The notes beneath the pieces were generated by a model that was given only the letters and a program-made list of their open reading frames with translations, made no database searches and was not told the DNA's origin. This document shows, piece by piece, positions 40,160 to 47,865 of a stretch of 64,000 nucleotides of DNA. Source of the DNA: Thermodesulfobacteriota bacterium (GTDB taxonomy: Bacteria; Desulfobacterota; Desulfobulbia; Desulfobulbales; SURF-16); assembly GCA_039714595.1 (NCBI GenBank), contig JBDLJA010000001.1:20459-84458 (forward strand), read 5' to 3'. Numbering within the stretch: the stretch's first letter is position 1; every line of letters starts with the position of its first letter. The position numbers were made by a program, and so were the translations under genes.

Positions 40160-40911
40160 TCACTGTTAAAATAACGGCCCACATCCTCGGGCCTGTGGGC
40201 ATCTGAGCCGTAAACAAAGTTCAGGCCAATGGCCCTGGCCTGATCCCTGATCCAGGCGGCCGGGAACGCGTCGCGGCCCAGGGCCAGGCCCGAGGTGTTC
40301 ACCTCCAGGGCCACCCCCCTCTCCGCCATGGCGTGAAGAATCGCCGTCACCAGTTGCCGATGCTCGTCTTGCCACTGAACATCAGCGCTGTGCCGCAGGA
40401 CCGCGTCCAGGTGACAGACCGCACTGACAGGCAACTCCCGCACCCCGCGCAAGAGCCCGGCCAGATAGAGCCGTAACACCTCATCGTGCCCCAGCCGGGC
40501 GAGACCGATGGTATTGCGCGCCTTGCGGCTCACCATATTAAGGTGCCCCCCCTGACCACAGGCCAGAAAGTGGTATGAGAGCCCCACCCGGGCCCAGGGG
40601 TAGGAGTCGATAAAGGCGCGGGTCTCGGCCAGCCCCTCAAGGTTCAGGCCAACCTCCACCCCTACCCCCACCTTGATCCGCCCCCCATAACGGGCGGACA
40701 ATCTCTCCCCCTCCTGCTGATAGCGGACAAAATCGGCTGGGAAAAGCCAGGTCCGCTCAAAATAATCAATCCCCCACTCAAAATGCTCCAGGAAGATGAT
40801 CTCGGCCAAGCCCTGGGCCAGGGCCGCCTGGACGTAATCCTCCATCTCACCTGTGGCGTGGCCGCAGAGGGAGGTATGGACATGGCCGTCGCAGCTTAAG
40901 GGATCAGTCAT
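40138..40911 (-). CDS. PHP-domain phosphoesterase (histidinol-phosphatase HisJ/K-like)
   Basis: MTDPLSCDGHVHTSLCGHATGEMEDYV...IFLEHF is a PHP metal-binding signature. The start ATG overlaps the cbiO stop (ATGACTGA). Confidence 0.7.
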   Translation of the reverse strand: MTDPLSCDGHVHTSLCGHATGEMEDYVQAALAQGLAEIIFLEHFEWGIDYFERTWLFPADFVRYQQEGERLSARYGGRIKVGVGVEVGLNLEGLAETRAFIDSYPWARVGLSYHFLACGQGGHLNMVSRKARNTIGLARLGHDEVLRLYLAGLLRGVRELPVSAVCHLDAVLRHSADVQWQDEHRQLVTAILHAMAERGVALEVNTSGLALGRDAFPAAWIRDQARAIGLNFVYGSDAHRPEDVGRYFNSDQLKETT

Positions 40912-41629
40912 GGCCATGGGCATGGGGCCGGTCGCCATGGAGATGGATATGGGCATGGCTGTGGAGCTGGGCGGTGGCGCCCTCTTCCAGCCCGCCTCCC
41001 GTAAGAGAGTAGATGATATCGCATGTCTCCTGGAGAAAATCAAAATCGTGGGATATGAGGAGATAGGGCAGCGGGATCACCTTAAGGATTGCCATGAGGC
41101 TCTCGCGGCTGGCGGGATCGAGATTATTGCTCGGCTCATCAAGCAGGAGCAGGCGCGGTTCCATCACCAGGATGGTGGCTAAAGAGACCAGCTTCTTTTC
41201 ACCACCTGAAAGATGATGGGTGACGCGGTGGGCCAGATGATCCAGCCCCAGGCCGCTTAAGGTGGTCATGGCCCGCTGGCGCGCCTCACCGGGCGTGGCG
41301 CCCAGGTTTAAAGGGCCAAAGGCCACATCCTCTATTACGGTGGGGGAAAAAAGCTGGTCATCGGCATCCTGGAACAGATAGCCCACATGGCGGCGCAACT
41401 GGCGCCACTGGTCGCGGCTCTCCACCCTGGCGCCGTCAAGGAGGAGAGCGCCACTGGCGGGTTGACTCAAGCCCATGACTATGTTGAACAGGGTTGTCTT
41501 GCCGGAACCATTGGCACCGACGAGCCCCACCCGCCCCTGGCCCAGCTGGAGATTCACCCCCTTAAGGAGCTCCTCGCCGCCAGGATGGTGGTAAGAGATA
41601 TCGCGCAACTCAATGATGGAATCCTTCAC
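40904..41629 (-). CDS. cbiO: ECF/Cbi-Nik transporter ATPase subunit with a His-rich C-terminal tail
   Basis: Walker A GANGSGKTT, signature LSGGEKK, Walker B LLLLDEP. Tail HSHAHIHLHGDRPHAHGHD. Confidence 0.85.
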   Translation of the reverse strand: MKDSIIELRDISYHHPGGEELLKGVNLQLGQGRVGLVGANGSGKTTLFNIVMGLSQPASGALLLDGARVESRDQWRQLRRHVGYLFQDADDQLFSPTVIEDVAFGPLNLGATPGEARQRAMTTLSGLGLDHLAHRVTHHLSGGEKKLVSLATILVMEPRLLLLDEPSNNLDPASRESLMAILKVIPLPYLLISHDFDFLQETCDIIYSLTGGGLEEGATAQLHSHAHIHLHGDRPHAHGHD

Positions 41630-42384
41630 CAGGTACCCCCCGCTCTCAGCTCAAGGCCAGTAATAAAAAAGAGGCCGGCCAGCCCCATGGTGAGGAGAAG
41701 CAGGTCAGCCCGCCCCAGGTCAGTTACCGTTAAGCCATGGTAACGGCCGGTAAAACCGCGCAGGACCATGGCCTGCTGGACCCGCTGGCCCCGGCGCCAG
41801 CCCCGGACCAGGGTCATACCGATCATATTGCCGTAGGTCCGGTAGGTGTGCAGCGAGGTGGTGGGTACGAAGCCGCGCAGGGTGGCCGCCCGCCTGAGAC
41901 GGTCAAATTCTTTAGTGAGGACAAAGATGTAACGATAGGTGTAGAGGAGAAGGAGGCAGAACTTCTCCGGCACCAGGAGCAGCTGCAGGGCCTGGCCCAG
42001 TACGGCCAGGGATGAGGTGGCGACCAGGGCCAGGAGAAGCAGGACGATGGCGTTGCTCTTCAGGGTAATAAGCAGGGCCATCTCAAGGCCACGCTGATTT
42101 ACGGCCAGCGGCCCCAGCTCAAGATCCGCCTCTCCCACCAGGGGCAGGGTGAGCCAGAGCAGGAGAATAAAAACATTGACCATGGCCAAGCGGGCCAGCA
42201 CCTGGCGTAGGGGAAGACGGGCAAGCAGAACTAACCCCAGAGCCAGCCCCAAGCCCAGCAGGGCCACGGGCCAGCTGGCCAGCAGGGAGAGCAGCAGGGA
42301 AAAGAGCAGAGCAAGGACCACCTTAACCCGGCCGTCCCTCTGATGAAGCCAGGAGGTGCCACTGCTGAAGGGTTCAAAAACCAT
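41626..42384 (-). CDS. cbiQ: ECF transporter transmembrane (T) component CbiQ/NikQ
   Basis: 252-aa polytopic ORF of CbiQ type (ARG-containing C-terminal coupling helices: AATLRGF...MVLRGF). ATGA overlap with cbiO. Confidence 0.8.
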   Translation of the reverse strand: MVFEPFSSGTSWLHQRDGRVKVVLALLFSLLLSLLASWPVALLGLGLALGLVLLARLPLRQVLARLAMVNVFILLLWLTLPLVGEADLELGPLAVNQRGLEMALLITLKSNAIVLLLLALVATSSLAVLGQALQLLLVPEKFCLLLLYTYRYIFVLTKEFDRLRRAATLRGFVPTTSLHTYRTYGNMIGMTLVRGWRRGQRVQQAMVLRGFTGRYHGLTVTDLGRADLLLLTMGLAGLFFITGLELRAGGTW

Positions 42385-42386
42385 TG

Positions 42387-42956
42387 CTAATCACCCTTCC
42401 TCCGGCCGCGCCACCAGGCAAAGAGACCGGCCAACCCCACGATGTAACCAACACCAGCCAGGGCGTCAGCCAGCCCAGGCTGGCGGATGCTCTGCGCCGC
42501 CAACTGTCGGCGCAGAGGGGCCAGTTGCCGCTCCACCTCCTGGGCCACGATAGGGCGCAGGTCCTCCCCGTTGGCGGAGAGTGGCGCAGAGAGGGCGGCC
42601 GGGGGAATTTCCGTCTCCCCCCCCTTCTCACCCGCCTCAAGGGGCCACTGGGCCTGGTGGCCCTGACCACAGTTAACCGTGACCAGCATATCCCCCGGGT
42701 AATCGGGCCAGGCCAGGGTGGCCTTACCGGCGCTGTCCGTCTCTCCCTGGCCCAGCTGCCTTGAATCGGCCCGGGCCAGGAGGGTAACAGCACAGCCCTG
42801 GGCCGGCCGCTGGCCGCCAAAGTACGATTCCACCTGCAGACGCCCCTGCTCCCTGTAGGCGAAGACCGACATCTGATGGGCCCCGGCCGTTGGCGGCAGG
42901 GCAAGGGACAAGACGGCGGCAGCAACCAGCAATAGCAAAGAATTAATATTGATCAT
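42387..42956 (-). CDS. Periplasm-facing accessory component of the Ni/Co uptake system (NikL/NikK-like, transthyretin-like beta domain, C-terminal TM anchor)
   Basis: 189-aa ORF. The signal peptide ends AGA|HQM, so the mature N-terminus is His. Has a beta-rich domain and a C-terminal TM helix (GVGYIVGLAGLFAWW). Sits between cbiM and cbiQ with an ATGA overlap. Confidence 0.5.
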   Translation of the reverse strand: MININSLLLLVAAAVLSLALPPTAGAHQMSVFAYREQGRLQVESYFGGQRPAQGCAVTLLARADSRQLGQGETDSAGKATLAWPDYPGDMLVTVNCGQGHQAQWPLEAGEKGGETEIPPAALSAPLSANGEDLRPIVAQEVERQLAPLRRQLAAQSIRQPGLADALAGVGYIVGLAGLFAWWRGRRKGD

Positions 42957-43552
42957 CTCTGCCCCAGCATCTCCGGCTCAACCCGGGCCAGGAAACGGAC
43001 CACAACCATGGTTATCAGACCCTCAATCAGCATGACAGGCAGATGGGCCAGCAGAACCAGACGGGCGGTGAGGAGAAACTGCTCATCGGTGGAGATCAAG
43101 ACCAGGGCCAGAAGGAGGCCGGAGAGGGCAATGGCCCCGGCCCCGGCCGCAAAGGCGGCAATTTCCATCCTCCGCCCCGGTCGAGCCAGGTGAGGCCGGG
43201 CCAGGAGGCCACAGAGCAGGGCGGGCCCGGCAATAATAACGATATTTGCCCCCAGGGCGGTGAAACCGCCAAACTGAAAGAAGATCGCCTGTAAGAGCAG
43301 GGCCACAGCAATGACCGGCACGCAACCCCACCCCAGCAGCAGCCCCATGAGCCCGTTTAACAGGAGGTGAACCGATCCCGGTCCAAGCGGCACATGGAGC
43401 AGGGAGGCGACAAAAAATGTTGCGGCCAACAGGGCGGGGGTCATGATCCGCTCCGGATCAATGGCCCGTAACCCGGCCACGGTCCCCACCGCGGCCAGGG
43501 CCGCCCCGCCAACGATGAGAGGGGCGTTTAATATTCCTTCAGATATATGCAT
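42953..43552 (-). CDS. cbiM: Ni/Co ECF transporter substrate-capture component CbiM/NikM
   Basis: 199-aa polytopic ORF beginning MHISEGIL, the conserved Met-His metal-binding N-terminus of CbiM/NikM. Confidence 0.85.
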   Translation of the reverse strand: MHISEGILNAPLIVGGAALAAVGTVAGLRAIDPERIMTPALLAATFFVASLLHVPLGPGSVHLLLNGLMGLLLGWGCVPVIAVALLLQAIFFQFGGFTALGANIVIIAGPALLCGLLARPHLARPGRRMEIAAFAAGAGAIALSGLLLALVLISTDEQFLLTARLVLLAHLPVMLIEGLITMVVVRFLARVEPEMLGQR

Positions 43553-43689
43553 TTTTATTACTTTATTATTGGCAGCTGCTTTTACCTGTTGTTAAAAACG
43601 CTGGTAAAGGCGGCAGATAGCTAACGGCTCATTGAAACCCACCACCTGCCGCCCACCTTTACTGCCCCAGGGTATCCCTGAAAGAAATA

Positions 43690-44100
43690 TCAATGGAGAT
43701 TCTGGCCGGTGGAGCTCATGGCCAGCTTGCCGTCGCGCACCCCGCGCAGGGAGATGAGGCGGTGGGCCAGACCCTGCACGTCTCGGGCCTTGCCCCGGAC
43801 GATAATCACCTCCAGGCAGTTATGGTGGTCCATATGGACATGGGTGGTGGAGACAATCAGATCATGCTGATCATGCTGCTGCTCGGTCACCTTTTCCTGC
43901 AGCTTATGCTGGTGATGGTCATAGACCAGGGAGATAACCCCCATGACATCCTTATCCGCCGCCCACTCATCCTTGACAAAGGCGTTTCGGATGAGATCGC
44001 GAATGGCCTCGGAACGATTCTCATAGCGCCGGCGGCGGCTGAAATCATCAAAATCCGCCAGCAGATCCTCATCAAGGGAGATGGAAAAACGCTTTAACAT
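43690..44100 (-). CDS. nikR: Nickel-responsive transcriptional regulator NikR
   Basis: 136-aa ORF. RHH domain RFSISLDEDLLADFDDFSRRRRYENRSEAIRDLIR, with high-affinity site residues (HVHMDHHNCLEV). Confidence 0.92.
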   Translation of the reverse strand: MLKRFSISLDEDLLADFDDFSRRRRYENRSEAIRDLIRNAFVKDEWAADKDVMGVISLVYDHHQHKLQEKVTEQQHDQHDLIVSTTHVHMDHHNCLEVIIVRGKARDVQGLAHRLISLRGVRDGKLAMSSTGQNLH

Positions 44101-44284
44101 TTTTACTCCTACCCACCGTGGGGGGGGAATTTAAGACAAAATCGCGGGACTTAAGGCAGCCACCAATCACACCAAAACAAATTTCGTGTTACTGTAGCCG
44201 ATAAGGTTACGATTAACCACAAAAAAAGGCTGCCCCCAAAGGGGCAGCCTTGAACATAAGCCTTATACAGCTTGAGGCCTGGGG

Positions 44285-45649
44285 CTATTCGGTGATGGAA
44301 CAGTCGTTACCGTCGCACTCCACCTCGGCCATGAGAAAATAGGCGTTGTAATCACGCTTCTTCAGCTCTTTATAGGCCATCTCGGCCCGGGCACCGGTGG
44401 TGCAGTGGATAAAGATCTTCTGACCCTTGTCCACATTTTTGATCCGGCAGATGAAGTTATCCATCTCCTTGCACAACTCATCCAGGGGGATATGCTGGGA
44501 GGTCTTGAACTTGCCTTCGGCAACCTCATCCCTGGTCCGGACGTCAAGGACAATCGCCTTGGAGGGATTTTTCAAGGCGGCCTCAAATTCAGCCACGGAG
44601 ACCTCGCCTTCACCCAGGATACGGACCCAGGTCACCTCGGTATTCACCGGTCCCTTCTTCAGGGTGCCACCCACCCTCTTCCAACCACGGAAACCGCCTT
44701 CCACCAGGGAGACCTTCCTATAACCCTCTTCGCGCAGCTTCTTCATGGCGGCCAGGGTATCTTTATCCTTGTCGCTGTAGAGGACCACCGGCGCCTTCGT
44801 GGGGATATCCTCCCAGAGGTCATCCGCCATAAAATCCTTGAAGGGCATGTTCACCGAACGGGGGATGCGGGACTCGGCATCGGCCTTGGCACTGCGGAGA
44901 TCGACAAGGACGATGTTTCCGCGGCAGACCCAGCCGTAGTTGGCGTAGGTGGGATAACCCGCCTTCTGCCAGGCCGGCTCACCTTCGAGCATTACTTTGA
45001 TATTTTTATAACCTGCTTTGACCGCCTGACCGGCGGACTTGGGGCTCATGCCTCAGGTGGGCCCTCCACAGTAAAAGACAAGCAGTTTATTCTTGTCCTT
45101 GGGCAGGTTCTGCAAAAGTTCCTGCATCTCACAGACCGGGATGGAGATCGAGCCAGGGAGATGGGAGGCGGCATAGCGCTTGCCAGGCCGGGAATCAACG
45201 AGGAGAAAATCCGCGTTCTTGTCCTGTAAGGCCTTGACATCCTTCGCACTTATTTTCTCCACGCCAGGCGGCAACTTGGCCAGCTTGGGCTTGATATTCG
45301 TGGCAAAGGGCTTGCCGTCCCGCATCTCATAGGCGATGATGGCGGCATGGCCCTTGGAGGCATGCTCCACGCCCGTGGTGGCCTCGTCAAAGGAGACCAT
45401 GACTGTCTTGGCCTTGGCCCCCTTGCCCACCTGAATGGAAATCTGCTTGGCCTTGTTGGACTTGCCAACGACCTTGCCCTTATACACCTTTTGCTGTTTT
45501 TTCTGCGTTGCAGCAGCAGCCGGAGCAGCGGGTGCGCTAGCGTCAGCAGCCTTGGTCCCACCACCGCCGCCAGTGGCGCAGCCGGTGAGGAGCAGAGCAG
45601 TAAGGGCCAGGGCTGGCCCTGTGCCTTTAAGAATTGACGTAAAGTTCAT
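44285..45649 (-). CDS. Triple-rhodanese lipoprotein, selenocysteine-containing (in-frame UGA at comp 45053-45055)
   Basis: Track ORFs 45053..45649 and 44285..45049 are in the same frame, separated by TGA plus one Gly codon: LLVFYCGGPT-U-GMSPKSAGQAVKAGYKNIKVMLEGEPAWQKAGYP. The junction lies inside a single rhodanese fold. AAGGAGG SD, signal peptide with LLTGC. Third domain has HCTTGARA. Confidence 0.75.
45022..45036 (-). promoter_or_regulatory. SECIS-like hairpin core for the rhodanese gene
   Basis: mRNA CCGCC-GGUCA-GGCGG starts 16 nt after the UGA. The GGU-containing apical loop resembles the E. coli fdhF SECIS loop (GGUC). Confidence 0.55.
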
Positions 45650-46058
45650 TCAAACCTCCTTAAACATAGGATTTCACGAAGGGCACCAGAGGCACCATTT
45701 AGCAAGCATAATATCGACCATTATCTATAGCAATATACATACCATGCAATTACCAAGCCCCATTTTAGCCGCATATCCCTGACTACCAAGCCTTCGCCTC
45801 ACTAGCCAACCCACTCTCCGGACAACAACCCCCTGCAAACAAACTTGACAAGCCGCCCCGCCGCAAATTCGGAACCAGAGACAACTCCCAAAAGTATGGG
45901 GCTTAGTGACCAATGGTCCCAGCGCAAAAAAACAATGCCCAGCAAAAAATTTTGCAGGACATTTGGCAACCGGCCAAAATTTCAGCGCCGGCTGGAGATT
46001 GGCAGGGCAGTAGCACCTTTAAAGGGTGCCCTTATCGTTTTCGGCAAAAGGAGGGATA

Positions 46059-46087
46059 GTAAAAAAAACAGCCCGGTACGGGCTGTT
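46059..46087 (-). terminator. Rho-independent terminator for the 46255-46950 gene
   Basis: Perfect 9-bp stem AACAGCCCG/CGGGCTGTT (46067-46087) with a GTA loop. The A8 run on the plus strand gives a U-run on the minus-strand transcript. Confidence 0.75.
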
Positions 46088-46254: not shown

Positions 46255-46950
46255 TCAGGCGACCAGAACCGGCATCTGCCGCCGGCCGCCATTACTCCCC
46301 TCCCCCTTCTTGTCCTCCGGGCTACCCTTTTCCGCAACCTGCTGCTGTTGTTGCTGCTGCACACTTGGGGTTAGGGCGGAGAGATTAAACTCCACCTTAT
46401 AGAGAAGCTTGATGGAACTCACCTCACCCGCCTGGGCCTCAATATTCAGGTAATCATTAATATTAAGATCCAACCGCACCGCCGGATCGTTGGCATCAAA
46501 ACTCGTATCCCACTGAACCTTGTGGATGAACGGGATCAGAAACTTTTTTTCCTTATTCGTGGCGCTATTCGTGACGCTCTTTTTTTCATCTTTCCCGGGG
46601 GTTAGCCCGAACAGCCCGGAACCAGTTGTTTCAGGGCCAACTTGCCCATACTCACCCTTCAGGTGAAGATACCTGGCCGTATCTGAAACAACGTCCTCCA
46701 CATGCTCCACAAATTTCCGGGCCCCGGGCAGAAGATCCAGGTCAAAGAGGACAATCTGGGCGATAATCAAGGGATTGGCCTTGGTGGGCTCATCCTCCTG
46801 CAGGGATTGGCTCTCCCAGTTGCTGGGATCACCGCCATAGTCGAAATCTTCCTGGGCGTGGAGGGATGGCTGGGCTATCAGGCTGATTAAGAAAAATTGC
46901 ACCACAAACAGCGTGCTGATGGACATCCAGAAAGTTCCCATCTTCGACAT
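46255..46950 (-). CDS. Secreted hypothetical protein with a poly-Gln run
   Basis: Start at MSKMGTFWMSISTLFVVQFFLISLIAQPSLHA (ATG comp 46948-46950, GAGGTGGGAG SD). Has a signal peptide and a Q7 tract near the C-terminus. No recognised domain. Confidence 0.6.
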   Translation of the reverse strand: MSKMGTFWMSISTLFVVQFFLISLIAQPSLHAQEDFDYGGDPSNWESQSLQEDEPTKANPLIIAQIVLFDLDLLPGARKFVEHVEDVVSDTARYLHLKGEYGQVGPETTGSGLFGLTPGKDEKKSVTNSATNKEKKFLIPFIHKVQWDTSFDANDPAVRLDLNINDYLNIEAQAGEVSSIKLLYKVEFNLSALTPSVQQQQQQQVAEKGSPEDKKGEGSNGGRRQMPVLVA

Positions 46951-47865
46951 GGCTCCCACCTCTGTTAGTGGCTGGCAGTAGGTCGTCCGCAGGCGACCCT
47001 GAGCATGCATCCGGCCCTCTCAACCTATGGTTGAGGATGCGGAAGGGCTTTTTTTGCTGGCGGACCTGTTTCCGCCAGCCGATTTTCATCTAACTTCCAA
47101 GCAGGCCAGGTAACGAGACACACCAATTACTTAGGTCTTGACTGCTGGTGCGACCTCCCTGGCCTGTTACTAAAAATCTTTTTTCAAATACTTGAAGATG
47201 AAGTTGACCATCGGTAACGCCCTTTTGGCCGCCACCCTTCAAACTTTGTATTTTCGCGACCCCTCCTATCAGGTCCACAGGTTGTTTTTGTTGGCCTTGG
47301 GCAAACCCCGTTCTGCCAGAACCGGGGATAAACTGTTGGGAGTTTCCATGATCGCCTCTGATCATGGGAACCGTGAAGGTTATAAAAAAAGCTGGAGAGG
47401 AGATGGACCACCCTAAAACTTTTGTCCAGCAGCCGTTGCCCTTGTTAAAGATCAGCAACAGCCAAAGTCAAACTCCCTTCTCACCTTCTCAGACCACGGG
47501 CTTTACGCCCCTTGATTAATTTCTTGACCGGTTCTTTAAAGAGGAGTTGGCCCCCTTTGGTTGTTGCGGCCTTGGGAGACCCTTGTCCCCCGTTAGCATC
47601 TTTATTTGCAGGGTATGTGCCAGGGAAAAAACAATCTCGGAAAGACAACAAAATCAGGAAATTGGGCCGTGAAGCCGGGCCGGGCAACCGTCTCAGACCA
47701 CCCTATTGTTTACAGTTATCCGGAAATGAGAGGCAAATCGCAGAGAATTATCATATGAAACTCAATAGATAGACAGGAAGGGCGGGGGGGAGAATCCACT
47801 TCGGAAATCCGGAGAGAAACAGCCAAGCCCTGGGGCACCAAGGGAAAAGGCCATTGAAAGCATAG

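Follow-up and report, generated by a model that had tools for sequence, protein, structure and literature searches.

Rhodanese-type selenoproteins have been catalogued since 2004-2005, and Zhang et al. (2026) list five forms of them (PMC13188914). Form 1 is characterised by the motif UxxS, in which U denotes selenocysteine (Sec), and is represented by WP_010941598.1 of G. sulfurreducens, forms 2 and 4 contain the motif UxxG, form 3 contains CxU and corresponds to the NCBIfam model NF041203 (rhodanese_LYCAU), and form 5, TsoB, contains UxxxxU in a rhodanese/DsbD fusion (NF045694) (PMC13188914). Here, we describe a gene on the minus strand of a 64-kb stretch of DNA from a Thermodesulfobacteriota bacterium, the whole of which is called the window in the following. 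The reading frame of this gene contains a single internal TGA codon. It very probably encodes an exported Sec protein of 454 residues composed of a beta domain, three rhodanese domains, and a tail with a Cys-x4-Cys motif, with a Cys-Sec pair in the active-site loop of the first rhodanese domain.

The window protein shares with the catalogued forms the rhodanese fold, the Sec inside the active-site loop, and the existence of cysteine homologues. Its sequence U-G-M-S fits the UxxS of form 1, a likeness that concerns the motif description alone. As in form 3, the Sec is found downstream of the canonical cysteine, but the spacing is x4 in the window protein and x1 in form 3. The C-x4-U spacing equals the U-x4-U spacing of TsoB, from which the window protein differs by having one UGA and no DsbD-like membrane domain. 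In addition, its three rhodanese domains, its N-terminal beta domain, and its lipoprotein signal distinguish it from the catalogued forms. The protein scores 77.5 bits against NF041203 (cutoff 115), whose loop is C-x-U instead of C-x4-U, and 56.8 bits against NF045694 (cutoff 805), and is therefore neither form 3 nor form 5. It could well be the listed form 1 or closely related to it; that it represents an uncatalogued sixth form has a lower probability. A preliminary description of this DNA, made from the sequence alone, had stated that rhodanese-type selenoproteins were already listed, which is correct (PMC13188914), and had not recognised the combination of a three-domain lipoprotein architecture with a neighbouring nickel-uptake operon. 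The architecture is also found in Cys-type homologues of the Geobacteraceae and of Thermodesulfovibrio.

The minus-strand open reading frame (ORF) 45649..45053 stops at the TGA, and the frame then runs unshifted via GGC ATG to a TAG codon. On translation the joined frame comprises 454 codons with one internal stop (positions are given in Table 1). With the joined protein, U replaced by C, as query, 352 relatives were found at E <= 1e-10, the best 120 of which were examined. Seventy-eight of these are full-length (384-478 aa), and all but three of the 78 read FYCGGxTC[GSTP][ML]S with a cysteine precisely at the column of the TGA. Full-length homologues of the Cys type (411-478 aa) show 64-70% identity. 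Residue conservation was counted over 45 aligned full-length homologues, 43 of which have cysteine at the TGA column. The remaining 42 of the best 120 relatives are entries of 250-255 aa that start at the methionine two codons past the column or at the next methionine. They represent what gene callers make of the C-terminal half of a Sec form, and one of them, P0006 (254 aa), is 100% identical to the second ORF of the window. Entries for the corresponding N-terminal pieces also exist in the databases; they comprise 189-199 aa, break off at the column, and bear the names "rhodanese-like domain-containing protein" or "hypothetical protein". When genomes representing species were scanned, 80 loci were obtained, all from Desulfobulbales. 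A TGA is present in 63 of these loci (57 identified by a protein-motif screen and six via the downstream hairpin), 13 have TGT or TGC at the column, and one has lost both cysteines; three loci matched neither the loop-motif nor the hairpin screen, and no codon was assigned to their column. The coding sequence is conserved on both sides of the in-frame UGA in the 63 genomes. Among the cultured strains with Sec forms are Desulfogranum mediterraneum DSM 13871, D. marinum DSM 2058, D. japonicum DSM 18378, and Desulfoprunum benzoelyticum DSM 28570. The gene is present in most Desulfobulbales genomes, and the databases routinely annotate two fragments. Searching 1.84 billion representatives with a profile yielded 538 proteins (E <= 1e-30), of which many have the same overall layout. 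In two genomes, a further paralogue of the Cys type is located some 4.8 kb upstream of the Sec-type copy, with the loops FYCGGVACGMS (L050; 5711, 10538) and FYCGGPTCGMS (L061; 5597, 10559).

The preliminary description had considered the two ORFs to be one gene in one frame, preceded by a strong Shine-Dalgarno sequence (AAGGAGG), starting with a signal peptide and a lipobox-like LLTGC, and containing a hairpin CCGCC-GGUCA-GGCGG behind the TGA. All of these elements are found at the positions listed in Table 1. As the same text had considered decisive, the homologues are single polypeptides with cysteine at the column, represented by the 78 full-length proteins, and not consistently two genes. 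It had also taken the hairpin with its GGU loop for a selenocysteine insertion sequence (SECIS), and this is borne out by its conservation, which is confined to the Sec forms. If numbering starts with 1 at the U of the UGA, a 4-bp stem (21-24/30-33) and the loop G25 G26 U27 C28 W29 make up the conserved core, in which G26-U27 follow that U at a distance of 23-24 nt. The 58 Sec sequences (those of 57 loci and the window) share the fixed codons GCC GGU CWG GCG at +7 to +10. The entropy at the third positions of these codons amounts to 0, 0, 0, and 0.13 bit in the Sec forms versus 1.5-2.0 bit in 15 Cys sequences, and to 1.3-1.9 bit at the neighbouring four-fold sites. The stem-loop with its G(U) apical loop is thus under selection in the Sec forms, whose synonymous sites hardly vary here, whereas those of the Cys forms vary freely. 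The 69-nt stretch after the UGA has a folding energy z of -2.8 (single sequence). The 13-mer CGCCGGUCWGGCG occurs 62 times at Sec sites in 1.23 Mb of loci, always 17 nt past the TGA, and is kept in all but one TGA form. Elsewhere in the 1.23 Mb it was found only three times, at the homologous place in Cys forms with TGT or TGC (L008:3703, L031:5797, and L044:5696, the L044 copy being exact), which suggests that these three are relics of a recent Sec-to-Cys conversion. A scan of the window gave no exact match of the 13-mer besides the selenoprotein site.

Outside the Desulfobulbales, Thermodesulfovibrio (Nitrospirota) encodes a homologue with 34% identity, which exists in a Cys form (P0284/P0146) and in a Sec form. 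RefSeq splits the latter into WP_068859848.1 and WP_068859850.1. The hairpin of this Sec form, UCUGCUC-GUA-GAGCAGA, is of different sequence but has G26-U27 at the same distance from the UGA. The SECIS of E. coli fdhF likewise combines a G+C stem with a loop starting with GGUC and an essential G-U about 20 nt past the UGA. Its loop nucleotides are G23/U24, and G26/U27 of the window hairpin are thus found one codon further. In contrast to fdhF, the window family conserves the 4-5 bp stem alone, and has neither a conserved lower stem nor a bulged U; no conserved lower stem was found among the compared Sec forms. A second element might be the Shine-Dalgarno-like GGAGG in the codons of Gly195-Gly196, which is present in 48 of the 58 Sec forms versus two of the 15 Cys forms. 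This element may promote pausing or recoding, or its distribution may simply reflect lineage.

Several points weigh against the decoding of the UGA as Sec. The invariance of the stem limits classical covariation to one pair change, the compensatory C-G to U-A at pair 21-33 in L016, and to the comparison with Thermodesulfovibrio. Neither a gathering search of the whole window nor a permissive search around the UGA gave a SECIS family of Rfam, only noise matches. There is no selA, selB, selC, or selD in the 64-kb window according to the ORF survey and the absence of any tRNA. We infer the Sec competence of the source organism from relatives, and we take Desulfotalea psychrophila to belong to the same order. 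Selenoproteins have been recorded for this species (PMC1914089). Taken together with the frozen synonymous sites and the homologue column, we are nevertheless nearly certain, as far as comparison of sequences can tell, that UGA199 is decoded as Sec via a minimal bacterial SECIS consisting of a 4-5 bp G+C stem and a GGUCW loop.

The Pfam Rhodanese profile (PF00581) matches the joined protein in three stretches with 130.6 bits against a gathering cutoff of 22.2, and the best stretch, residues 134-229, spans the TGA. The three domains with a degenerate second (YSDKD) and a normal cysteine loop in the third (HCTTGARA), as proposed in the preliminary description, were confirmed by Pfam and by the alignment of the 45 homologues. 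A cysteine directly after the central strand is found in domain 1 (Cys194) and domain 3 (Cys416), and domain 2 has Asp293 instead. Column 293 is D, N, or E among the homologues and never Cys, and domain 2 is predicted to be catalytically dead. In domain 3, residue 416 is Cys in 40 and Ser in five of the 45 homologues, and G419, R421, and A422 are invariant. The tail cysteines are similarly well conserved (C445 in 40/45, C450 in 44/45). At the N-terminus, an n-region with Lys and a hydrophobic core precede L-T-G-C24, as identified by sequence inspection. The lipobox column is Cys in 27 of the 45 homologues, and the remainder have ordinary signal peptides. The window protein is thus predicted to be an exported lipoprotein anchored through Cys24. 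Structural information comes from an AlphaFold model of the Cys homologue P0003, which is 67% identical to the window protein and was modelled from a 44-sequence alignment with a mean predicted local distance difference test score (pLDDT) of 88. The model predicts disorder (pLDDT <50) for the Gly/Ala/Pro-rich tether, which extends from residue 25 to about residue 52. The tether is followed by the beta domain, whose strands in P0003 are 48-57, 62-67, 74-79, 95-103, and 106-114, and whose conserved motifs are VYxGKVxGKSNKAKTISI...FDDxTxG. This domain (residues 55-121) has no Pfam family, the sole Pfam match being a sub-threshold one to BipA_C; the conserved five-strand fold may be a docking or substrate-binding module.

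Foldseek matches are multi-rhodanese proteins, namely 1yt8, 6mxv, EanB, and the periplasmic three-domain YnjE of E. coli. According to the published structure of YnjE, its C-terminal domain alone is reportedly active. YnjE (PDB 2wlr, 3ipo; E about 2e-8) is also exported and has three rhodanese domains, but it has no Sec, C-x4-C loop, N-terminal beta domain, or lipid anchor. The best single-domain structural match is 3nhv, with a template modelling score of 0.73 on the target, a root mean square deviation of 1.4-1.6 A, and 26% identity. It is a structure of BH2092 from Bacillus halodurans (PDB 3nhv, 3o3w), which has the same kind of enlarged loop, Y-C-W-G-P-A-C-N-G-A-T, a C-x4-C. BH2092 differs from the window protein in having Cys instead of Sec and in being a cytoplasmic single domain, and it stems from a structural-genomics project; we found no published function for it.

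In the P0003 model, the central strand (182-186, ..LVFY) leads into the loop C187-G-G-P-T-C192-G193, and a helix extends from M194 (194-204). In the numbering of the window protein, this places Cys194 immediately behind the strand and Sec199 at +5, with the helix starting at G-M-S-P-K. In HMMER alignments, FYCGGGF--RSALVA of 6mxv is aligned to FYCGGPTCGMSPKSA with its catalytic cysteine on Cys194, and NCAGRTRS of 1yt8 is placed with its catalytic cysteine on Cys194 and its arginine on residue 199. Sec199 corresponds either to the canonical Arg or to part of an insertion of two residues, and the loop of domain 1 is about two residues longer than the canonical one. Model and alignments therefore support that Cys194, and not Sec199, occupies the canonical catalytic position. 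Because the Sec is found five residues past the catalytic Cys194 in an enlarged loop, the functional unit would be the Cys-x4-Sec pair and not a lone Sec nucleophile. Positions 194 and 199 are both Cys in 43 of the 45 homologues, the other two, P0035 and P0045, have lost both together, and the C-x4-C loop is widespread among exported multi-rhodanese relatives.

The preliminary description had correctly placed the Sec in the first active-site loop and had noted a cysteine five residues upstream (CGGPTU), which is Cys194 and is lost jointly with residue 199. It had, however, assigned the Sec to the catalytic position, so that Sec199 itself would be the nucleophile in a U-x4-K-S cradle and Cys194 an accessory residue. 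Sec is the reactive residue in most selenoenzymes, U-G-M-S-P-K-S formally matches C-x4-[RK]-[ST], and S202 is invariant among the aligned homologues. A rhodanese form UxxS is also listed in the review (PMC13188914). However, the residues past U-G are helical in the P0003 model (194-204) with the cradle loop located upstream of the Sec, the catalytic cysteines of 6mxv and 1yt8 are aligned with Cys194, and K204 is poorly conserved (17/45). An assignment of Sec199 to the canonical position is therefore improbable. Sec199 might nevertheless act as the primary nucleophile from outside that position; what is rejected is the positional claim alone.

With the Cys-x4-Sec pair as the functional unit, a redox relay can be envisaged. 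One of the two chalcogens of Cys194/Sec199 in domain 1 would accept sulfane sulfur from polysulfide, thiosulfate, or species derived from elemental sulfur. The neighbouring chalcogen would then resolve the adduct, release or pass on sulfide or persulfide, and form a Cys-S-Se-Sec bond, which an extracytoplasmic reductant would reduce again. Domains 2 and 3 would represent a classical inactive/active rhodanese tandem that carries a persulfide on Cys416. The setting would be periplasmic or outer-membrane sulfur trafficking in Desulfobulbales that disproportionate or respire sulfur. By analogy, TsoB supports the reading as a redox pair, because it combines a rhodanese with a DsbD-like thiol-disulfide transporter and has a U-x4-U motif. 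We regard this Cys-Sec relay and its role in sulfur respiration as a serious but tentative possibility. Two points speak against it. Residue 416 is Ser in five of the 45 homologues, and a relay from domain 1 to domain 3 is therefore not universal. Clustering of the ORFs over the 80 loci revealed no conserved gene partner, no neighbour being present in more than 24 loci. The recurrent neighbours are housekeeping genes (PurD/E, a TsaC-like protein, TetR, GreA, an ABC-F protein, and PBP4). Since no neighbour is conserved in the Desulfobulbales, the assignment of function rests on distant homologues and chemistry. In favour of the role in sulfur respiration, Desulfobulbales are reported to conserve periplasmic rhodaneses and to express them strongly while they oxidise sulfide or carry out disproportionation, in a study that does not mention selenocysteine (PMC13047784); the window family may be among these rhodaneses.

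The distant homologues are located in more informative surroundings. In Thermodesulfovibrio (L083, 7419-8768 and 8823-10757), the Sec form is followed by a multihaem cytochrome of 644 aa and preceded by a divergent rhodanese of 165 aa. In Geomonas sp. Red32 (L081, 5930-17374), the homologue P0186 (32% identical) is part of an ext-like cluster with the order DUF3373 porin-like protein, 105-aa protein, rhodanese, PsrABC-like Mo-oxidoreductase, two multihaem cytochromes, and Rieske protein with cytochrome b, although both cysteines of its domain 1 are lost. This cluster resembles the ext-type cluster of Geobacter. There, ExtH (GSU2940) is a 49-kDa rhodanese-like lipoprotein adjoining the porin ExtI (PMC6148476, PMC5877670), and the selenoprotein ExtKL is reported to be essential for the respiration of elemental sulfur (PMC13510729). 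The Geobacteraceae homologues (P0186, P0299-P0416; 457-470 aa) have the same architecture of a beta domain and three rhodaneses with 32% identity over about 370 residues, the FYC-x4-C-NMS loop (except P0186), and are exported or lipoproteins. They differ in being encoded in clusters with porins, cytochromes, and Psr-like enzymes, whereas the window gene stands alone, and in that those retrieved are Cys forms or, in the case of P0186, have no pair. One of them, GFO56496.1, is named 'sulfur transferase selenocysteine-containing protein' in GenBank. A haem-binding-type motif, CXXCH or CX4CH, precedes the beta domain within the N-terminal 40-50 residues of P0146, P0186, and P0299-P0408, and is absent in the Desulfobulbales family. 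An assignment of the window protein to ExtH was considered because architecture and loop are common to both. It was rejected because no ExtI-like porin, ExtJ-like small protein, or cytochromes are found beside the window gene or conserved over the 80 loci.

Instead of sulfur, the Cys-x4-Sec site might handle a metal or metalloid, either nickel, given the adjoining NikR/CbiMNQO genes, or selenite and tellurite, as has been proposed for ExtH/ExtI of Geobacter. A nickel regulon does adjoin the selenoprotein gene, a rhodanese is able to carry selenium as perselenide, and deletion of extI impairs the reduction of both selenite and tellurite, with the localisation of ExtH depending on ExtI (PMC5877670; Jahan 2019). 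The downstream neighbours of the selenoprotein gene are NikR, CbiM, NikL, CbiQ, CbiO, and a HisJ-family PHP phosphatase. The nickel-uptake operon next door that had been pointed out in the preliminary description is therefore real, but its adjacency is not meaningful. Among the 80 loci, this arrangement is common only to the closest relative, L001, and an adjacency in one of 80 loci is incidental and carries no information on function. Moreover, the selenoprotein gene has its own terminator, and that of the preceding gene lies upstream. The contexts of the homologues, with Psr-like enzymes and cytochromes, point to sulfur respiration, to which ExtKL is now assigned as well (PMC13510729). A role in metal or metalloid handling thus has little probability compared to one in sulfur chemistry.

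It is hard to see how the TGA could be a true stop that separates a lipoprotein fragment of 198 aa from a second protein of 254 aa, whose translation would restart at the ATG two codons further on. Gene callers as well as GenBank and RefSeq do annotate two proteins (P0006; WP_068859848.1 and WP_068859850.1), and the TGA is followed by an ATG with GGAGG 13 nt upstream of it. However, this spacing is too long for a normal Shine-Dalgarno sequence, the break would part the strand of the rhodanese fold from its active-site helix, and the C-terminal piece would be left without a signal peptide. In addition, 78 homologues run through the site uninterrupted and have a Cys there, and the SECIS is under purifying selection only where the TGA is present. 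Two separate proteins are therefore extremely improbable. The possibility of a pseudogene, or of an assembly error confined to this metagenome-assembled genome (MAG), for which a single-base change from TGY to TGA in a metagenome-type contig would suffice, can be dismissed because 63 independent genomes, cultured isolates among them, have the identical TGA in an undisrupted frame between conserved flanking sequences. A genome-wide reassignment of TGA was also considered and rejected: TGA terminates 10 of the 31 large ORFs of the window as an ordinary stop, and the codon is thus not globally reassigned. Scanning the window for other TGA-joined ORF pairs gave only antisense and overlap artefacts.

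The features of the gene and its flanks are collected in Table 1. The gene is monocistronic, as follows from its own terminator and that of the upstream gene. The plus strand contains an antisense shadow ORF of 274 aa (44405-45229), which overlaps the selenoprotein gene. Since the UGA divides the true gene, the shadow ORF exceeds either half and wins a naive longest-ORF gene call. The nickel/cobalt uptake operon of the energy-coupling factor type with its regulator covers 40904-44100 of the window (minus strand), and its CbiO has a His-rich C-terminus (HSHAHIHLHGDRPHAHGHD). On the upstream side, the neighbours are a 251-aa ORF and a CDF transporter. The 251-aa ORF (46255-47010, minus strand) has a predicted N-terminal hydrophobic segment and a glutamine run (QQQQQQQ), with no NCBIfam match and no counterpart in the 80 related loci.

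Table 1. Positions in the window of the selenoprotein gene, its recoding signals, its domains, and its flanking elements. Hairpin positions in the last column count the U of the UGA as 1.
Feature	Position	Strand	Basis and remarks
Preceding gene's terminator	46087..46067	-	Upstream of the selenoprotein gene
Candidate sigma-70-type promoter TTGGTA-16-TAAAAT	45762..45789	-	Upstream of the gene; consensus scan, 9/12 matches, weak evidence
Shine-Dalgarno sequence AAGGAGG	45655..45661	-	5 nt before ATG 45649; direct sequence reading
Complete selenoprotein gene	44285..45649	-	Sec199 = UGA; stop TAG 44287..44285; translation and homologues
Predicted signal peptide and lipobox MNFTSILKGTGPALALTALLLTG-C24	45578..45649	-	Cys24 codon 45580..45578; sequence
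N-terminal five-strand beta domain, residues ~55-121	45287..45487	-	P0003 model strands and conserved motifs
Rhodanese domain 1, residues 134-229	44963..45250	-	C194-G-G-P-T-U199-G loop; Pfam best stretch; model loop/helix limits
Cys194 codon TGT	45068..45070	-	Canonical rhodanese catalytic position directly after the central strand
Shine-Dalgarno-like GGAGG (Gly195-Gly196 codons)	45063..45067	-	7 nt upstream of the UGA
UGA for Sec199	45053..45055	-	Sequence, homologue column
SECIS core hairpin, stem CCGCC/GGCGG, loop GGUCA	45022..45036	-	Minimum free energy fold; stem 20-24/30-34, loop 25-29
Rhodanese domain 2, residues ~245-335	44645..44917	-	LYSD293 replaces Cys
Rhodanese domain 3, residues ~349-437	44339..44605	-	Loop H-C416-TTGAR-A; Cys codon 44404..44402
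C-terminal beta-hairpin tail, Cys445-x4-Cys450 pair (EVECDGNDCSITE)	44288..44338	-	Model strands 436-441, 443-447
Intrinsic terminator	44226..44251	-	34 nt past the stop; 11-bp stem with 8 GC pairs, then a T run

In general, the two halves of the protein have been deposited separately in dozens of genomes, including RefSeq isolates and MAGs, and no NCBIfam model reaches its cutoff. A family-specific model would mend hundreds of gene calls. Going further, the window protein might belong to an uncatalogued family that is exported, usually lipid-anchored, present in about 80% of the Desulfobulbales species and in Thermodesulfovibrio, and recorded as split ORFs, in which the Sec at +5 does not substitute for the catalytic cysteine but partners it as an extracytoplasmic Cys-Sec redox device that reduces or resolves sulfane sulfur in the course of sulfur disproportionation or respiration, with the GGAGG perhaps being a second recoding signal; taken as a whole, we consider this proposal doubtful. 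The C-x4-U loop beside the U-x4-U of TsoB suggests a redox-type subclass of rhodaneses. The machinery with which Desulfobulbales and cable bacteria oxidise and disproportionate sulfur is still incompletely resolved, and periplasmic rhodaneses are considered to belong to it (PMC13047784). If it is true that these periplasmic rhodaneses include the window family, part of that machinery would be selenium-dependent.

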